Part shown: one piece after another, positions 10,904 through 59,309 of the stretch | Position numbering within the stretch: position 1 is the first letter of the stretch | Layout of the letters: each line of letters opens with the position of its first letter | DNA from: Candidatus Saccharimonadia bacterium | GTDB taxonomy: Bacteria > Patescibacteriota > Saccharimonadia > CAILAD01 > CAZGYV01 | Length of the DNA stretch: 64,000 bases | Reading direction: 5' to 3' | Assembly (NCBI GenBank): GCA_041906885.1 | Contig: JAYRII010000015.1 | Coordinates: 15,534 to 79,533 of the forward strand | Position numbers and translations under genes: made by a program | The notes under the pieces: generated by a model | Seen by the model: only the letters and a program-made list of their open reading frames with translations | The model's database searches: none | What the model was told of the DNA's origin: nothing

Positions 10904-13618
10904 TTAAGAGGATTTTGAATCAGTTATGGCCGGCTGTTTTTGCTGGTTACTAATTGGTATCGCGGGCTGAGGACTGGGCGGTGCGGGTTGATTTGGTTGT
11001 GGTTGAGATTGTACTAACTGGCTCGGTGGTTCGGTTTTAGCCACTGGATTTGACTGAGGCTGATTGGCATTCGAGGGGCCTGCAGCCTGCTGGCTAGCCG
11101 AAACTGGCTTAGACGAACTAGCTGGGCTAATTGACAAGCTTTCAAAGATAGTTTTTTCTACCTCTCCCTTAGGCCGGCCATATTTCGTGCGTGATAGCTC
11201 TTTGACGGCAGCTTGTAATTTAAGATCAGCCTGACCGATTTTTGGCAGCATTTTGATCGAAAAAGGCGTTAAAACTGCTCCTTTTGAGATAATGCGCATA
11301 GCTGCACGATGGTTTGGCATGTTGATAATATCGGCGGCATCAAATGTCGGCGTCAGCTGTTTGGCCAAAAATTCCGCATCCTCTGGTCCAACACGGTAGC
11401 TTAGAATTGAGCCAACATTACCAAAAACGGCATCACGAATTTGCTCGTTCAATTGACCAATAAACTGGTTAGCTACAATCAGGCTCAAGTGATATTTACG
11501 AGCTTCTGATAAAATAGTGGCGAAACTATCGGTCGAAAAATTCTGAAACTCATCGACATACAAACTAAAGTCGCGGCGCTGCTCCTCTGGTGTATCAGAT
11601 CTACTCATCGCAGCCGCTTGAATTTTGATCACAAAAATCATACCCAAAAGTTTAGAATTCAATTCGCCAACCAGTCCCTTGCTCAAATTGACAATCAGGA
11701 TTTTACCCTCATCCATGACCTGGCGCAAATTGAGCGAGCTTTGATGTTGGCCAATAATATTACGCAAGATTTCATTCTGCGCAAAAGCACCAAACTTTGA
11801 TACAAACCAGCCCAACATCTCACTCTTATGATAATCACTGGTTTGAGCCATTTCCTTGAGCCAAAAATCTTGCACAATTGGGTCGGTGACGTACTTAAAC
11901 TTCTGCTTCAAGAATTCATTATCTGTAAAAATCTTTGGCACCTCGATAAATGTTGCGCCATTCGGGTCAGACATCAAAGTCAAAGTCGCATTACGATACC
12001 ATTGTTCAAAACGAGGACCGATTATGCCCTGCTGTTGCGGGTCGTAAAGCTTATAAAGCATCGAGATAGTTTCTTGGATGATAAAGTCTTTCTGCTCCGG
12101 GCGATCAAATTGCAAGATATTCAAGCCGAGCGGCATCCCAGTATCTGCCGGATTAAAATAAATCACATCCTCTGCCCTGTGGGCTGGCACTTTAGCAAGT
12201 AGTTCTTCGGCCGTGTCGCCATGTGGATCGATAAAGCATAATCCCTTACCCATTGCCATATCTTGGACAATCAGATTATGTAAAATAGTTGACTTACCAG
12301 TACCAGTTTGACCAACGATATAAACATGACGCCGTCTGTCATCGTCAGCCAGCTTCACCACTCTGTCCTGACCATGAAACAAATTACTACCAAAGATCAA
12401 CCCCTCATTACTCAGTTGCTGAGGCGCCGCAACCTCACGCACAGCCGAACGATCAACCGGAGTAGAGCTTTCGGCTGTCTTGCTTGGTAGATGAAATATA
12501 GTAGCTAGTTCGGTGGCATTTAAGACGACTTTGTTCCACCAGGCTGGGAAGATACGAAAAATAAAGTTGGTTGCCAGAGTTTGTGGATATTGAGATTGCA
12601 TCAATTTAAAACCATTTGAGCCCGGTAGATTAAGCTGGCTAAAACCAGCCATCATATCTTGAACCAAAGTTTTAGAGCGAACCTGATCATGTGAGCTGGC
12701 AATCAGCCGAATCATTGTTTCGTAAGTTGGTATCGAAGCCTTCTCTTCAATTAATTGACTTTTTTTCTGATCAATTGCATCTGGCGGATTATAGCCAGCC
12801 GCTTGCTTGTCAGATGATTCTGCCTGTGGCGATTTATAGGTCATTTTAGCCACATCCATTGGCGTAAAGCCTTTACCGGCATGTTTTTTATCGCCCGGAT
12901 GCAGTAATTTCTTAGCGGCCGCTCGTGCACGTTTGTTCCAGCGCTTTGAAGAAGATCGAATCAAAATTTGAAGTGCTACTCCTTCACCATCATGCAGCTG
13001 CGACATACTAGTTGTAATGCCACTAACAGCATCAAATTCACTAACTTTATAAGTCTGGATCGGATACCAGCTGTCGTTGGTCATAACCAGCTCACCGCCA
13101 GCCACTACCCCAATTTTACCCAAGTGTGAGAAAATATTGTGATCTTCACGCCGCTCAACCTGGATGTCTGGATAGGATGAATTAAGAGCTTTTTCAATAG
13201 TCGATAGTAAGCTAACAGGCACTACTACATAAAAGTAAATTTGACCACCCGTGGCTATCATCTCACAGGCTAAATGTTTTCGTCCGAAAAACCAACGTTT
13301 AAACGTACTCAAAGCCAACATATGATCCCAAAAACCCTTTGTCTTAGTCGCTCCAATGACTGCCATTATATTAAAAAATCCTTCAGCCCGAGCAATATTT
13401 TCCTTGATTAGCTCACGATTATCACGCATGGTCGCTTCATTAGCCTCAGCCGGTGGCAGCTTTACCAGCAAAGGTACCATTTTGAGACTACGCTCTAGCT
13501 CCTTCGCGCGCCGAAAAATTCGTCTAAAAATAAAGAAGGCTGCTACTGCCACAACCAAGACGGCTAGTACTAAAAGTACTATCATAAACATCGTAAATGA
13601 TAGATTTTCTTCGCCCAT
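10904..13618 (-). CDS. FtsK/HerA-superfamily P-loop ATPase most similar to type IV coupling proteins (TraD/TrwB/VirD4-like). It has an N-terminal TM helix and a Q/P-rich C-terminal tail.
   Basis: Walker A region HVYIVGQTGTGKST....CFIDPHGD; a VDEFQNF Walker B followed by SLIVANQFIGQL, in the DEFxxL...QSxxQL pattern of VirD4/TrwB; 904 aa. Confidence 0.6.
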   Translation of the reverse strand: MGEENLSFTMFMIVLLVLAVLVVAVAAFFIFRRIFRRAKELERSLKMVPLLVKLPPAEANEATMRDNRELIKENIARAEGFFNIMAVIGATKTKGFWDHMLALSTFKRWFFGRKHLACEMIATGGQIYFYVVVPVSLLSTIEKALNSSYPDIQVERREDHNIFSHLGKIGVVAGGELVMTNDSWYPIQTYKVSEFDAVSGITTSMSQLHDGEGVALQILIRSSSKRWNKRARAAAKKLLHPGDKKHAGKGFTPMDVAKMTYKSPQAESSDKQAAGYNPPDAIDQKKSQLIEEKASIPTYETMIRLIASSHDQVRSKTLVQDMMAGFSQLNLPGSNGFKLMQSQYPQTLATNFIFRIFPAWWNKVVLNATELATIFHLPSKTAESSTPVDRSAVREVAAPQQLSNEGLIFGSNLFHGQDRVVKLADDDRRRHVYIVGQTGTGKSTILHNLIVQDMAMGKGLCFIDPHGDTAEELLAKVPAHRAEDVIYFNPADTGMPLGLNILQFDRPEQKDFIIQETISMLYKLYDPQQQGIIGPRFEQWYRNATLTLMSDPNGATFIEVPKIFTDNEFLKQKFKYVTDPIVQDFWLKEMAQTSDYHKSEMLGWFVSKFGAFAQNEILRNIIGQHQSSLNLRQVMDEGKILIVNLSKGLVGELNSKLLGMIFVIKIQAAAMSRSDTPEEQRRDFSLYVDEFQNFSTDSFATILSEARKYHLSLIVANQFIGQLNEQIRDAVFGNVGSILSYRVGPEDAEFLAKQLTPTFDAADIINMPNHRAAMRIISKGAVLTPFSIKMLPKIGQADLKLQAAVKELSRTKYGRPKGEVEKTIFESLSISPASSSKPVSASQQAAGPSNANQPQSNPVAKTEPPSQLVQSQPQPNQPAPPSPQPAIPISNQQKQPAITDSKSS

Positions 13619-33485: not shown

Positions 33486-33938
33486 ATGAAAATCGTAGCC
33501 AAAAACAAGCGAGCAACCTACGACTACGATATCGCCGAGCGAATCGTGGCCGGTATCGTGCTGGCCGGACACGAGGTCAAGAGTGTCAAGGCCGGCCACA
33601 TCAGCCTCAAGGGCAGCTTCATCGCCATTAAGAGCGCCGAGGCCTATTTGGTGGGCGCCCACATTACCCAGTACAAGCACTCTGCCAACATCAAAGACTA
33701 CGATCCGGTCCAGAGTCGCAAAATATTGCTCCATCGCCGCCAGATTGATCAGATTATCGGGGCTATCCAGTCACAGGGCATGACGGTGGTGCCAATCGCG
33801 GTCGGCATCGAGCGTGGGCTGATCAAAGTCGAGATCGGTATCGGCCGCGGTAAGAAGCGATACGACAAGCGTGAGACGATCAAAAAGCGCGACATGTTAC
33901 GCGACGCCGGCCGTGATATCAGGAGTAAAGAGAAATAA
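33486..33938 (+). CDS. smpB: SsrA-binding protein SmpB
   Basis: MKIVAKNKRATYDYDI.. matches the SmpB N-terminus. The track ORF starts at 33438, which would overlap the divergent argS start, so the internal Met at 33486 is preferred. The gene is GC-rich (~60%). Confidence 0.85.
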   Translation: MKIVAKNKRATYDYDIAERIVAGIVLAGHEVKSVKAGHISLKGSFIAIKSAEAYLVGAHITQYKHSANIKDYDPVQSRKILLHRRQIDQIIGAIQSQGMTVVPIAVGIERGLIKVEIGIGRGKKRYDKRETIKKRDMLRDAGRDIRSKEK

Positions 33939-37293: not shown

Positions 37294-38802
37294 TTAATGA
37301 GCAGTCACGAATTCTATATTCGCAAGCTCTTGCACTATCTGTACTTGCAGCTCTTCGTCTCCCAACTCACGGAAGGCTTTGGATCCGGCCAAATAAATGG
37401 CTATCTTAATCAGCTTAGAGTTGTAGCTCGGCTTCTCAGGCTTCACTTCGCTTGAAACAGCACTGCTTGAGATTGGTACTGCTGGCACATCCTGACGCAC
37501 ACCTTTATAGACCTGCTCATCTATTGAACTAGCCTGTTCAACCACCTTGTCGAGCAACTTGCCCTCGCTAGTACTAGTAGTAGGTGGCTGACTGTGACCG
37601 TTGCCGTTCTGGGGCAGTGGCGGATTCACCGGTTTTGACATTGCTGCCAAATTACTACTATAGCCACTGCTTTCAGTGTTTTCCTCATCCTCACGCACGT
37701 CTCTAGATCCCTTAATACTTGAAGTGTCCTTGAGCTTAGCAAGAGCCTGCTTGACGTCTTCTAAGCGATATAGGTTTGCAGGGCCATACGAATGAGCAGC
37801 CTCAAGCCCGACAGCCTGGAGCTGCTTGAAATAAGCCGAAGGGTTGCTATGAGTTATTCCAAGCTCTGCTAGCGCCATTCTTGTAGTAACAAGGCCACGC
37901 CTTTTGGCTTCGACCTCAATCTGGGCTTGTGATATACCTGGCATTTGCCTTGCTCCTTGTTCGCTGTTCAGTACCGACAGATCAACTTGCCGATAATCTT
38001 CCAGAATATCAAGATGCTCAACCCGCAACTGCTCCAAGGCAATAGCTTCAAGCTGACGCACTCTTTCATCAGAAATTCTTAGCTTGACGCCTATCTCTCG
38101 AAGCTTCTTTGGCTGACCATCAATTAAGCCAAAACGGTAGCGCAATATTTTAGCTTCTCTGTCTGGTAGATGGCCTAATACATGATCTATTTTCTGTCTG
38201 ACTTCGCGGGCAGAAGCTAACTCTGCGGCGTCAATCGAAGTCTCGTCGGCAAGTAGTTCACTGTAAGTAGTGTCATTACTGCTGAGATCATCGTTATTGT
38301 ATCTGATGGTCTCATCGATTGAGAGCAAGGATTTTTTCAAATATACCAGCAGCAACTGGACTTTATCACTTGGCAGCTCGGTAAACTTCACCAGCTCACC
38401 CAGATTAGGTTCGCGTCCTTTCTCCGCTTCTAAAAGCGAATACATCCTGCGGAAATCATTTAGCTCTTTTATCACGTGACCTGGTAAGCGGATTGCTCGA
38501 GCCTTAATGTCAACTGCCCTATTGATTGATGAATTTATCCACCAGTAGGCCAAAGTTGAAAACTTATTGCCTTGCTCTGGATCGAACTTATCTATAGCCG
38601 AGAGAAGACCGAGCATACCCTCTTGGACCAAATCATCATACTCTAGGCCACTCTGCCTATATCGATTGGCAATCTTGTGCACCATACGCACGTTACAGTT
38701 GATGAACCAATCAAGCGCATTTGCGTCACCTGCGCGGATTTTGTGGATGAGGCGCTTTTCTTCTTCGGCAGTCAGTAGTGGATACTTCTGCTTTTTTGGC
38801 AC
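37294..38802 (-). CDS. RpoD-like sigma-70 factor (regions 1.2-4.2) with a ~250-aa C-terminal extension.
   Basis: PLLTAEEEKRLIHKIRAGD (region 1.2/2.1), region 2.x DLVQEGMLGLLSAIDKFD, and the region 4.2 HTH ..LREIGVKLRISDERVRQLEAIAL... The following ~250 aa resemble no sigma region. Confidence 0.8.
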   Translation of the reverse strand: MPKKQKYPLLTAEEEKRLIHKIRAGDANALDWFINCNVRMVHKIANRYRQSGLEYDDLVQEGMLGLLSAIDKFDPEQGNKFSTLAYWWINSSINRAVDIKARAIRLPGHVIKELNDFRRMYSLLEAEKGREPNLGELVKFTELPSDKVQLLLVYLKKSLLSIDETIRYNNDDLSSNDTTYSELLADETSIDAAELASAREVRQKIDHVLGHLPDREAKILRYRFGLIDGQPKKLREIGVKLRISDERVRQLEAIALEQLRVEHLDILEDYRQVDLSVLNSEQGARQMPGISQAQIEVEAKRRGLVTTRMALAELGITHSNPSAYFKQLQAVGLEAAHSYGPANLYRLEDVKQALAKLKDTSSIKGSRDVREDEENTESSGYSSNLAAMSKPVNPPLPQNGNGHSQPPTTSTSEGKLLDKVVEQASSIDEQVYKGVRQDVPAVPISSSAVSSEVKPEKPSYNSKLIKIAIYLAGSKAFRELGDEELQVQIVQELANIEFVTAH

Positions 38803-38919
38803 TAGGCAGTCCTTTCAAGTTGCAAATTTAGGTGAAACCAAATCCATCCTAAATTATTACATATCTAGTCTTCGTTCGTAAAGCTTTCGCTTGTTATGCT
38901 TAAGCTTATATTTGCCGAA

Positions 38920-38965
38920 ATCAAAAAAGACCTCCGTGAACCTGCGAAAGTCCTTTTTGGTGGAG
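38920..38965. repeat. Copy A of a 46-nt dispersed repeat (ATCAAAAAAGACCTCCGTGAACCTGCGAAAGTCCTTTTTGGTGGAG).
   Basis: It differs from copy B at 2 positions and lies ~115 nt upstream of the sigma-factor start. Confidence 0.7.
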
Positions 38966-39022
38966 TTTGGTACTACTAACCACCCCATTTTTTAATAAAG
39001 TTAAACGACCGCCAGGCTCTTA

Positions 39023-39277
39023 CTAGCGCCTGTAAACATCCTTGCGATGTTGCACCCGCAAAATTTTTGCCTCACCAGCTTCAATGTCAAACACAACCCT
39101 GTAAGTGCCAATGCGCCATCGATAATCACCATCACTTGAGTCTGTTAATCGTTTGGCAAAAGATAAAGGATTGGGCGCGTCCAAATAAAATCGAAGTTTT
39201 TTGAGGATCTGCTTTTGGGTAACCTTGTCTAGACTTTTGAAATCTTTTAGCGCCCTATGGGTAAACTCGGCCTTCAT
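39023..39277 (-). CDS. RelE/ParE-family toxin
   Basis: An 84-aa ORF; ..YRWRIGTYRVVFDIEAGEAKILRVQHRKDVYR is a typical RelE fold signature. Confidence 0.8.
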   Translation of the reverse strand: MKAEFTHRALKDFKSLDKVTQKQILKKLRFYLDAPNPLSFAKRLTDSSDGDYRWRIGTYRVVFDIEAGEAKILRVQHRKDVYRR

Positions 39278-39279
39278 AC

Positions 39280-39546
39280 CTATTCATTGGTACCCATCAC
39301 TTCGCGGTAAATATCTTCAAAAGGCACCGTCTTGCCCTGCTTGGCTTGCGCACGAGCCTTCCTGATACTGGCACGATATTTGGGGTCTTGCGATGCCAAC
39401 CAATCCTCAAGCATCTCCAAGTCAACCAATGCGACTTCGCCGCGTCCACGGCGCCTAATTTCTAATATATTGCCCTTTTTGACTTCATCAATAGCATCGC
39501 TTAGGTTAGCTCGCAATACGGTGGCATCAATAACTTTTATACTCAT
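39280..39546 (-). CDS. Phd/YefM-type antitoxin
   Basis: An 88-aa ORF immediately upstream of the toxin with a 2-nt gap; its N-terminus is Phd-like. Confidence 0.7.
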   Translation of the reverse strand: MSIKVIDATVLRANLSDAIDEVKKGNILEIRRRGRGEVALVDLEMLEDWLASQDPKYRASIRKARAQAKQGKTVPFEDIYREVMGTNE

Positions 39547-39640
39547 AGTAGTTCCTAATTATTAAATGTACATTTAGATTATACACTTCAATTATACATA
39601 AGGCAATGATTTTTATTATCCGCAATCAAAAAGCTTGGTA

Positions 39641-39686
39641 ATCAAAAAAGACCTCCGCAAACCTGCGAAAGTCCTTTTTGGTGGAG
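39641..39686. repeat. Copy B of the 46-nt repeat.
   Basis: ATCAAAAAAGACCTCCGCAAACCTGCGAAAGTCCTTTTTGGTGGAG, ~95 nt upstream of the antitoxin start. Confidence 0.7.
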
Positions 39687-39803
39687 ACAAGCAGTGATGC
39701 TTTATATAATTTTCTTGCATGCTCAGGAGCAAGCTTTTGCGCCTGCTCGTCATTAGTGCACCCCGCTGGCCAAGACCAGCTCGAACGGGTGCTCACTCCA
39801 GCA

Positions 39804-39849
39804 CAATCAAAAACGACCAAGCGCAGAGGCTTGGGCGTTTTTGGTGGAG
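39804..39849. repeat. Diverged third copy of the same element (shares the ATCAAAAACGACC head and the TTTTTGGTGGAG tail).
   Basis: The terminal ~12 nt match on both ends, but the middle has diverged. Confidence 0.4.
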
Positions 39850-40451
39850 CTGCAGGGAATTGCACCCTGGTCCATTTAAGGCTATCAATATAGCATCTAC
39901 AAGCTTAGTCAGCTTGGGAGTGGAGTTTAAGGAGTAAATAAAGCTTAAAACTGACCAAAAACTTTGCTCACTTCCCCTTCATTTTGGCTTAGGTAAAGGT
40001 CAAAGGGTAACCAAAACCGCAATCAGATAAATATGGCGCCCGTACTTCCCTATCTGACGTCAGGAGCTCGAGCGGCTATCGCGTATTACGCAAAAGCTGG
40101 TGCAAAAGCAGGCATGGCAAAAGCCGCGCGTACTTTGCTTACAAGTGATTTGGCACTTATAGTTGGTGGTGGTTTAACGCCCCTACCATGGCGGCTTGCA
40201 GCTACATGTCAAGTTCCTAATGTCGAAGCTAGTCAGCCCCATGTCGAGAATCGCTTCATTTCCGTTAAAAAGACAAGCTTTTTAACTTCAAATTACGCGA
40301 AACCTCTCCTCTTCAAATCAACCTCTATCGTCAAATTATTTTACAATTTATTGGTTATTCGGAAGAAATAATTTGCCAGCTGCGAGCTTGATTTGCTAAA
40401 AACACTTCTTTCAAGAAGCACCTGATATTCTACCACAAAAACGGCCATTTT

Positions 40452-41261
40452 TCAACTTGACGCCTTAAGCCAGTCTCTCACCTGTTTGGCCGCCTGACGC
40501 GGGCGCTCTAATGGATATAAATGACCAGCCTTAGGCACAAGACGTACTTCAATTTGCTCAGACTGCTCGCAATGAGTCAAAAAATCCCGATCGATCAACC
40601 AATCGGCATCACCGGCCAATAGGAGAGCTTTGGTTGTGATATCGCCAGTGTAGTCTTCTGCCCGAAAATTCTTAAGATCTTCGACAATCTCGACAATGAC
40701 ACTGATTGGCGTTTTGCCATTTGCAACTTGCCCCATCTTAATAAGCTGCTTTTGGCGGTCACGATCTTTATCCGCAAAGAACATCTGCCCAGTATATCGA
40801 CTAAATAGATAGCTCGACAAAAGATTCCTCACTAGCTTCTTTGGTAAAAACCGACCGGCTTTATAGGCATGATCAATCAGGGACATTTTGTACTCAGGAC
40901 AAGGTGAAATTAGGACTAATCGCTTGAGCTTGAAACCTAGTGCGTTGTAGGTTAGAGCGATCAGAGCACCGTAGGAGTGTCCAATGATTATTGGGCGTGC
41001 GACACGCAACTGACACAAGAACGAGTCAAGCCAACGGGCATAAGACTCGACTGAATGCATTTCATCAAGAAGTTCGGATCCACCATGAGACGGTAGATCA
41101 GGCATGACAACATGATAGTCACTAAATTCTTTAGCAAAATCGACTAAAGACTCATGACTACCCCGAAAGCCATGCACAATCACGAGAGCTTGCTTGGACT
41201 CGAGATTAACCTCCCAGTAGTGGCAAATACGGCCGTTTATTGAGGTATGCTTTTTGGTCAT
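40452..41261 (-). CDS. Alpha/beta-fold hydrolase
   Basis: VIVHGF..G and the nucleophile elbow GHSYG; 269 aa. Confidence 0.75.
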   Translation of the reverse strand: MTKKHTSINGRICHYWEVNLESKQALVIVHGFRGSHESLVDFAKEFSDYHVVMPDLPSHGGSELLDEMHSVESYARWLDSFLCQLRVARPIIIGHSYGALIALTYNALGFKLKRLVLISPCPEYKMSLIDHAYKAGRFLPKKLVRNLLSSYLFSRYTGQMFFADKDRDRQKQLIKMGQVANGKTPISVIVEIVEDLKNFRAEDYTGDITTKALLLAGDADWLIDRDFLTHCEQSEQIEVRLVPKAGHLYPLERPRQAAKQVRDWLKASS

Positions 41262-58675: not shown

Positions 58676-59309
58676 AGCCTGATTACCTAGCTATAAGCCG
58701 AATTCTGTATCCCGATGTATCGGGACGGCGATCATCTATCTTACTCTTTGCCCTACATCATCCGAGCAAATTGTATGTCAACTTAATAAAAGTCGATCAT
58801 GCGACATACCCATTCCAGGCGAGTAGCCTGGCACCTAATAAATGGTGGCGGGCCCATAGTCTTGCAGCCGACGGGGTTTACCACCAGCAGGCAGTCACCT
58901 GCCGCTGCTGTGAGCTCTTACCTCACTCTTTTCACCCTTACCCAGCACCTTAAATCGCTCAACAAAAGCCTGCTTACTTTTTAGTTCAACCAGCACTCTA
59001 CCATGATGCTTTAATTTTTGCTCACACTTCTTAAGCTAAGGCTTTTGTCTAAAGAGCCTTATAACGTACAAGCTATCGAGCCGAGCGAAACTTTGGTAAC
59101 AATTCTTTGCACATGATTGTGTTGGTAATATTTGTTTATGTATATACATAAACAAATTTTAACATAGCGATTTAAGGTGCTGGGCGGTATAGTCTCTGTG
59201 GCACTTTCCCTAGGGTCACCCCCGGTTGCCGTTAGCAACCGTCGTACTCTACGCTGTTCGGACTTTCCTCCCCGACAAGTCGGGGCGATCACCCACTAGC
59301 TAATCAGAC
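58676..59309 (-). ncRNA. rnpB: RNase P RNA, bacterial type A, with a ~230-nt insertion in P12.
   Basis: On the minus strand: P4/CR-I GGGGAGGAAAGUCCGAAC, CR-II/III AAGGGUGAAAAGAGUGAGGUAAGAGCUCAC, CR-V ACAGAAUUCGGCUUAU, and a P1 pairing CUGAUUAGCUAG / CUAGGUAAUCAG. Between CCGCCCAGCACC (59177-59188) and GGUGCUGGG (58941-58949) lies an AT-rich 227-nt segment closed by a perfect 19-bp duplex. A TATAAT box sits 7 nt upstream of the 5' end. Confidence 0.85.

Follow-up and report, generated by a model that had tools for sequence, protein, structure and literature searches.

Between positions 38800 and 40500 of a 64-kb stretch of DNA from a Candidatus Saccharibacteria bacterium (the window), a short toxin-antitoxin (TA) operon is enclosed by two near-identical repeats, next to a segment (39700-40300) in which the original prediction saw no credible gene. 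The question raised by this locus is what the repeats are and how the operon came to lie between them. The repeats are displaced copies of the 3' end of ssrA, the gene encoding the transfer-messenger RNA (tmRNA), together with its terminator, and the tmRNA gene itself lies in the seemingly empty segment. The locus as a whole is, in our judgement, probably a decayed, recombinase-less cassette array at an integration hotspot, the 3' flank of ssrA. Relatives and public contigs used for comparison carry the labels L002-L058.

The repeats, at 38920-38965 and 39641-39686, are direct, have the form ATCAAAAAAGACCTCCG(TG/CA)AACCTGCGAAAGTCCTTTTTGGTGGAG and are identical in 44 of 46 positions, as originally described; one further common base extends them to 47 nt (38919-38965 and 39640-39686, 45/47 identical). 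These two are the only matches in the window, and none was obtained in 100 shuffles. The first is located 116 nt upstream of the start of a sigma factor gene and the second 93 nt upstream of the antitoxin start, in agreement with the distance of about 100 nt given for both. All the genes concerned, encoding a hydrolase, the tmRNA, the antitoxin (phd), the toxin (relE/parE) and the sigma factor, are on the minus strand, and read on this strand the 46/47-nt unit, named U, shows CTCCACCA followed by an A-run, a hairpin and UUUUUUGAUU. The tmRNA 3' end, CTCCACCA, is the reverse complement of TGGTGGAG, the tail of the repeats, which are therefore not dispersed elements. The 12-mer TTTTTGGTGGAG, reverse complement of CTCCACCAAAAA, is present in all three copies of the original description, and CTCCACCAAAAA itself is found at the ssrA end and in both repeats, always on the minus strand and in direct orientation, as displaced fragments of a target gene would be; ssrA proper contributes just 8 nt to each displaced copy. 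Terminal inverted repeats and a target duplication are both absent from U.

Unit U1 (38919-38965, minus strand), delimited by repeat comparison and folding, is between the toxin gene and the sigma promoter, and its RNA folds into a 15-bp stem of -18.0 kcal/mol (z score -3.3), against -12.1 kcal/mol for the plus strand. Unit U2 (39640-39686, minus strand) contains CTCCACCA, the A-run, a 17-bp hairpin and UUUUUUGAUU, with values of -22.8 kcal/mol (z score -4.9) and -13.4 kcal/mol for the minus and plus strand, respectively, and is a displaced ssrA 3' end with a terminator of the native type. The hairpins are strong on the gene strand alone because two of their stem pairs are G-U. The terminator part of U is formed by the A-run, the hairpin, with the stem base GGGACUUUCG/CGGAGGUC, and a U-run ending in GAUU, so that U1 and U2 show the form of Rho-independent terminators: a stable hairpin directly followed by UUUUUU on the transcribed strand. 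Both were missed by the consensus terminator scan because of its loop limit of 8 nt and its strict stem rules. The U stems are kept paired by compensatory change, AC/GU being replaced by CA/UG. Both units are displaced copies of the ssrA end with its native terminator, as is characteristic of integration at this gene. The mismatched top of the U1 hairpin (CGCA...CACG) was considered as a crossover scar between hairpin types, and this idea was dropped, as the same top is present elsewhere in L058.

The segment reported to have no credible gene contains a full-length ssrA gene (39842-40240, minus strand), and this gene is the "orphan DNA" of the original prediction. It matches Rfam RF00023 over the whole model (positions 1-374 of 374) with 100.2 bits and an E-value of 5.6e-38, the gathering score being 47, and is 85-92% identical to the tmRNA genes of L018, L019 and L058. 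The tag reading frame (40086-40154, minus strand) starts with the resume codon GCC (alanine) at 40154 and encodes the tag AKSLVSKVRAAFAMPAFAPAFA followed by a stop; in translation its frame, length and stop are conserved in the same three relatives. The partner protein SmpB is also encoded in the window, at 33486-33929 (tblastn, 86% identity to SmpB of L058). ARAGORN reported no tmRNA in the region, while Rfam scores the same gene with 100 bits, and pipelines that depend on ARAGORN would leave it without annotation. An Rfam search of 38800-40500 with permissive E-values gave only the tmRNA above threshold; weak matches to a "permuted tmRNA" and to microRNAs, which overlap the tmRNA end and the hairpin next to it, are below threshold and were discarded. 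An open reading frame (ORF) of 112 amino acids on the plus strand (40033-40371) overlaps ssrA in antisense at 40033-40240, shows no match to a Pfam family and is most likely spurious; it is annotated as protein-coding in public assemblies of the strain (L002, L003, L007 and L010). A seemingly gene-less region, for which a spurious protein has been called publicly, is thus the site of the essential tmRNA gene. The GC content of 39700-40300, given before as 55-58%, was measured as 47.3%, against 44.1% for the whole window, and the idea of GC-rich foreign DNA was rejected on this difference of 47% versus 44%.

Ten public metagenome contigs, all of one strain, match the locus with 100% identity. 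Species-representative genomes were scanned with the last 32 nt of the window tmRNA, and nine genomes were found, eight of them titled Candidatus Saccharibacteria or Saccharimonadia and one Patescibacteria group bacterium. The U hairpin family is located directly 3' of ssrA in four of the nine (L024, L025, L027 and L028), the sequence of the ssrA end plus U being CTCCACCAAAAGGGACTTTCGTGATTCACGGAGGTCTTTTTTG in L024 and CTCCACCAAAAGGGACTTTCGAGATATTCGGAGGTCTTTTTTGATT in L025. A metagenome scan with CTCCACCAAAANGGNNTTTCG added eight further contigs, in which tmRNA T-arms of several sequences precede U, and one displaced copy. All U units fold, with hairpins of 10-22 bp and -14.5 to -30 kcal/mol. 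Across at least 20 related loci, U is found only directly after ssrA or within the interval between ssrA and a protease gene, and no viral contig carrying U, which could represent a phage attachment site (attP), was found. U is therefore the native end of ssrA, with its predicted terminator, in this Saccharibacteria group. L021 and L026 show another junction directly after the tmRNA end, in which CTCCACCA is joined to TTGACTTATAAT...TATAAT, a strong promoter-like sequence; this suggests that at least one further kind of element uses the ssrA site.

The ssrA gene of the window is now followed by a different hairpin, T3 (39804-39841, minus strand), identified by the terminator scan with the stem CCAAGC/GCTTGG and a T-run; it is the only one of T3, U1 and U2 listed by the simple scan, and its RNA folds with -20.7 kcal/mol (z score -4.2). 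T3 and the last 8 nt of ssrA make up the third, diverged copy of the repeat originally placed at 39804-39849: its head (13/14) and its tail (TTTTTGGTGGAG, 12/12) agree with the other copies, and its middle is a different hairpin. In L058 the stem of T3 is entirely different yet paired; six stem pairs are changed on both sides when L018 and L058 are taken together, and L058 accounts for five of these. The compensatory changes in the aligned stems support selection on the hairpins of both U and T3, and T3 appears to be a replacement terminator acquired by the ssrA gene of the window.

Between T3 and U2 there is a conserved non-coding segment of 117 nt, spacer A (39687-39803, minus strand), present at the matching position in L018 and L058 with about 78% nucleotide identity, versus 74% for the neighbouring hydrolase gene. 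The nested stem-loop of the original prediction is indeed present inside it, at 39758-39792, and its changes among the three sequences are one-sided and only wobble-compatible. Spacer A shows neither an Rfam family nor a conserved ORF, and it folds no better than shuffled sequence does (z score -0.85). The possibility that it is the decayed C-terminus of a recombinase was rejected: tblastn gave only an E-value of 0.05, driven by tmRNA antisense, and the frame is not conserved in L018. T3 and spacer A together formally make up a 160-nt segment between CTCCACCAAAA(A) repeats, which may be what is left of an older islet, or a small RNA.

The interval between ssrA and the protease gene is modular, with differing sets of cassettes (ORF140/142, the TA operon, the sigma gene) and U-derived hairpins between them. 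L025 shows ssrA-U-protease and nothing else, and represents the empty site. L018 contains ssrA-T3-spacer A-U-ORF144. In L058, with the whole locus on one 86-kb contig, the order is ssrA-T3-spacer A-U-ORF140-ORF142-decayed U-TA, with no sigma gene. L015, which is close to L058 (SmpB 98.7% identical), shows ORF140-ORF142-decayed U-TA-decayed U-sigma, and the ssrA gene of L015, on another contig, carries a recombinase islet. L011 contains island-U-ORF145-hairpin-sigma, and the window ssrA-T3-spacer A-U2-TA-U1-sigma. Cassettes are therefore present in some genomes and absent from others at the same place: L025 is empty, and L011 and L018 have ORF145 and ORF144, respectively, where the window has the TA operon. 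The suggestion that relatives might show the sigma gene directly followed by the hydrolase gene does not fit the gene order, in which ssrA lies between the two; the corresponding empty site is ssrA-U-protease, as in L025. The 5' leader of the ORF140/144 family (AATCGTCCGGATGGGCGGGAGGC...GGCGCTATTCCAGGGT; L018 ~11170-11270, L058 ~6705-6800, L015 ~1380-1470) is far better conserved than the protein (46% identity between L058 and L018); it matches no Rfam family and may be a structured leader.

In the decayed U units the hairpin is kept and the prefix is mutated. The counterpart of U1 in L015 has TTTTATCA, which is CTCCACCA with four C-to-T changes, and CTCGCCA and CCTCATCA are further decayed prefixes. 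U1 and U2 have in common the derived AAAAAGGAC and the subtype of the hairpin located ahead of sigma in L015 (41 nt, 95% identity). The U at the spacer-A position in L018, L058 and L011 belongs to a different subtype, GGCATTTCG...GTGC, and the pair of the window is therefore young.

Several relatives have islets with a large serine recombinase gene at ssrA. The metagenome contig L050 contains a complete islet, formed by the tmRNA end, U, an ORF of 534 amino acids on the opposite strand, two further ORFs and U, and its two U copies differ only in the loop and at one base. The 534-amino-acid product is a large serine recombinase (Pfam Resolvase, E-value 3e-16; XisF-like, E-value 2e-20 over about 400 residues). 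In L045 a recombinase beside ssrA is 54% identical to that of L050; the two ORFs, of 534 (L050) and 557 (L045) amino acids, measure about 510 amino acids from the likely ATG and have an N-terminal Resolvase domain. L027, the ssrA contig of the L015 assembly, also has a recombinase beside ssrA (tblastn E-value 1e-21), and L019 has a more distant one directly after ssrA. L011 contains an island of about 9 kb, with a serine recombinase of 558 amino acids at its left edge, that ends exactly at the displaced U; its ssrA end is off the contig, and its sigma factor is 85% identical to that of the window. With their last ~25 codons the recombinase genes extend, in antisense, across the U hairpin and into the tmRNA end (...KKDLRESRKSLMVELEGIAPSS), so that the 3' end of the recombinase gene lies within the attachment site. 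These antisense frames (...VELEGIAP...) are located at 83-190 of L050, 1-190 of L045, 2320-2538 of L027 and 3246-3330 of L019, and, from this arrangement, integration and excision should change the recombinase C-terminus. A recombinase is thus resident at ssrA in L050, L045, L027 and L019, and not in the window.

These observations can be joined in one scheme. Serine-recombinase islets would insert at U and leave one U copy on each side, and repeated insertion with loss of the recombinase gene would give a row of cassettes with U units between them. At present these units most likely serve as Rho-independent terminators, as predicted from their fold: U2 would keep transcription of ssrA and spacer A from running on into the TA promoter, and U1 would terminate the TA transcript ahead of the sigma promoter. 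The pair, being direct repeats of 47 nt, would also remain a substrate for cassette loss or exchange. The U pair of the window would come from site-specific integration rather than from homologous exchange, by a route in which a lone U ahead of sigma received the TA cassette and was duplicated in the process, as in L050, and a recombinase would act in trans on such cassettes. For the array as a whole, site-specific accretion is favoured; for its last step it is at best roughly twice as probable as the alternative. The general idea of the original interpretation, an accessory islet with a TA cassette between repeats serving as recombination substrates and a decayed mobile fragment, is retained in this scheme; the part that assumed dispersed repeats is not, since the repeats are the ssrA end plus terminator.

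Several points weigh against a decayed cassette array at ssrA. No serine recombinase match is present anywhere in the 64-kb window, and only phd and relE/parE are found between the repeats. The crossover point of the recombinase was not located by comparison of the loops of the left and right attachment sites (attL and attR) in L050. The 10 public contigs of the strain, all identical at the locus, give no sign of current mobility, and there is no hint of a foreign origin in the GC content. The duplicated part of the gene proper measures only 8 nt, with terminator making up the remainder of the repeat, and the criterion of a displaced fragment of a transfer RNA (tRNA) gene (tDNA), as used for islands of the Islander type, would miss it. 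Termination by U is a prediction from folding. The TA operon adjoins sigma both in the window and in L015, which fits vertical inheritance over a fresh insertion, and U2 belongs to the sigma-proximal subtype, unlike the U of L018, L058 and L011, which gene conversion explains equally well.

The last two points lead to the alternative that survives best, which is possible although clearly the less probable one. Here the order TA-terminator-sigma would be inherited vertically from an old TA-sigma adjacency such as that of L015, ORF140 and ORF142 would have been lost by homologous recombination between hairpins, and gene conversion would then have equalized the hairpins, including their CTCCACCA prefix, so that the units are related, recombining terminators. 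In the window as in L015, the sigma-proximal hairpin has the TA operon as its immediate left neighbour, the right-hand flank of U2 shares homology with the right-hand flanks of the decayed U units of L015 and L058, and U1 and U2 share AAAAAGGAC and the sigma-proximal subtype, as opposed to GGCATTTCG...GTGC in L018, L058 and L011; the lack of a recombinase within the window is also as expected. This history needs at least two events, however, a deletion and a conversion restoring an intact CTCCACCA, whereas a bracket of two U units arises around the recombinase islet in L050. The units would still be derived from the ssrA end, and the alternative changes the last historical step and not the identity of the element.

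Cassette accretion at ssrA can also be extended into a wider proposal, which is speculative and, taken whole, rather unlikely. According to it, U would be the attachment site of small serine-recombinase islets and at the same time the joint of a cassette platform, on which TA, sigma and ORF140/142 are shuffled in trans; spacer A would be a platform-linked non-coding RNA, and the conservation of U across differing T-arms would be maintained by island traffic or by 3' processing of pre-tmRNA.

It is improbable that spacer A and U2 constitute a small RNA gene with a tRNA-like CCA end, acting as a second target or decoy for tRNA-processing or integration enzymes, so that the repeats would mark the 3' ends of functional RNAs and not scars. 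The 78% identity of spacer A and the preservation of its nested stem-loop in three genomes would agree with this, as would the end of spacer A in CTCCACCA followed by a terminator and a weak promoter-like pair (TTGCTC, 18 nt, TATATA) that on reading the alignment is conserved inside it. The promoter-like site fails the consensus scan, however, the lack of an Rfam family and a fold like that of shuffled sequence (z score -0.85) speak against a structured RNA, the stem-loop changes are one-sided in only three sequences, and U1 has no comparable segment upstream.

Still less credible is a genome-wide dispersed element, such as a repetitive extragenic palindrome (REP)-like hairpin or a miniature transposon, of which three copies lie here by chance. 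U is a hairpin-forming repeat of about the right size, but only two copies and the ssrA end are found in 64 kb, U in the at least 20 related loci is confined to ssrA or to the ssrA-to-protease interval, and the unit begins with the tmRNA terminus and shows no terminal inverted repeats or target duplication. The weakest alternative, also offered by the original prediction, is a duplicated promoter or operator co-regulating the TA operon and sigma, and it can practically be set aside: both copies are about 95-115 nt upstream of a start codon, but they are located upstream of the scanned -35 elements, form strong hairpins with a U-run on the transcribed strand, follow ssrA as its terminator in many genomes without a similarly arranged downstream gene, and are separate from the operator-like palindrome at 39563-39576, which travels with the operon to loci devoid of U.

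The tmRNA gene is reportedly a favoured target of islands, as Williams is said to have set out in 2003 in "Traffic at the tmRNA gene". The closest known parallel to the locus is that of the ssrA islands of Dehalococcoides, which show a serine recombinase of ~540 amino acids beside attL on the reverse strand, 20-bp direct repeats of the ssrA end at their borders, and tandem islands downstream of ssrA, some without integration genes and read as cis-mobilizable or fixed (PMC3146451). The target at the 3' end of a single-copy tmRNA gene, the border repeats and the tandem arrangement are alike; the large serine recombinase beside attL on the opposite strand is shared by the relatives L050 and L045 only, not by the window. 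The likeness described is one of layout. Differences are also evident: the repeat of Dehalococcoides contains 20 nt of the gene, and here it contains 8 nt of ssrA and the whole terminator hairpin (47 nt); the islets are far smaller, that of L050 measuring about 3.6 kb and the cassette of the window 0.7 kb; and the phylum is another one, Saccharibacteria/Patescibacteria. The second small recombinase, ParB and Mom modules of Dehalococcoides were not seen here, and none of DsiA, RecF-like, ParB and Mom was seen in L050.

Islands of the Islander type use tyrosine integrases, and serine integrases are stated, in what is a standard resource for finding islands, not to be known to target tDNAs (PMC4383910; Hudson, Lau & Williams 2015). 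An intact target gene with displaced direct 3' fragments, tandem arrays and the preference for the tmRNA gene are common to both, and the present locus differs by the large serine recombinases, the displaced gene fragment of 8 nt and the integrase-less cassettes of the window. The concept of cis-mobilizable elements (CIMEs) and of the accretion of integrative elements, in the form in which it is cited in PMC3146451, describes a similar arrangement, a recombinase-less cassette between att-type direct repeats, in tandem with or in place of autonomous elements; the cassette of the window may, in contrast, simply be fixed rather than mobilized in trans. Integron cassettes with attC hairpins are alike in having short cargo between imperfect-palindrome sites on one chromosomal platform. 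Here, however, the gene lists of the locus contain no tyrosine recombinase, IntI included, attI is lacking, and U sequences show no attC core GTTRRRY; the cassettes have promoters of their own and the hairpins are terminator-derived. In its workings the locus resembles a tmRNA-gene integration hotspot at which partly degraded islands lie in tandem, and it is not an integron, a dispersed repeat or an operator duplication. No published description of the ssrA-U system in Saccharibacteria was found in a limited literature search.

The cargo between U1 and U2 is, as originally proposed, a RelE/Phd module. The antitoxin gene (39280-39546, minus strand) encodes a Phd/YefM-type protein of 88 amino acids (PF02604, E-value 2e-7; TIGR01552; Phd in the PDB, E-value 9.5e-4), and the toxin gene (39023-39277, minus strand) a protein of the RelE/ParE superfamily of 84 amino acids (PF05016, E-value 6.6e-9), whose closest solved chains in the PDB are RelE-type: 2khe, Rv2866 and E. 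coli RelE. The two genes are 2 nt apart and have the family profiles of a type II module, and the order antitoxin-then-toxin, the small genes, the promoter palindrome and the carriage on mobile or variable DNA are all typical of such modules; this one is ordinary, with a predicted toxin. The promoter/operator region (39547-39639, minus strand) shows in the promoter scan a -35 box TTGCCT (39606-39601), 17 nt and a -10 box TATAAT (39583-39578), with the palindrome TAAATGTACATTTA at 39563-39576, and is 82-84% identical in L015 and L058. The same TA family (antitoxin identity 63-84%) is found at four other kinds of locus, among them a pilus locus, and no U units were found around it there; the repeat is therefore a feature of the ssrA site, not of the TA module.

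The sigma-70 family gene (37294-38802, minus strand; Pfam Sigma70_r2 and r4, NCBIfam) is the last variable module of the ssrA-to-protease interval. It is present in L011 and L015 and missing from this interval in L025 and in L058, a close relative of L015. From the difference between L015 and the latter two, it seems to be accessory cargo of the ssrA hotspot and not a core sigma factor. Only three relatives with at least 60% identity were found among 5.8 billion proteins. The protein has a C-terminal extension of about 240 amino acids. Elsewhere in the window, the RNase P RNA (class A, 202 bits; 58678-59304, minus strand) has about 260 additional nt within one of its helices, inserted between positions 136 and 137 of the model.

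The finding itself is ordinary, a TA cassette retained as a remnant at a classical integration hotspot. The stretch between ssrA and the protease gene is the variable part of an otherwise syntenic, streamlined genome. Integration by serine recombinases at the tmRNA gene has been detailed mainly for Dehalococcoides, and Saccharibacteria would be a second, distant lineage, in which an attachment unit that includes the terminator hairpin, together with the antisense frame of the recombinase, would offer a compact site-enzyme pair for experiment.

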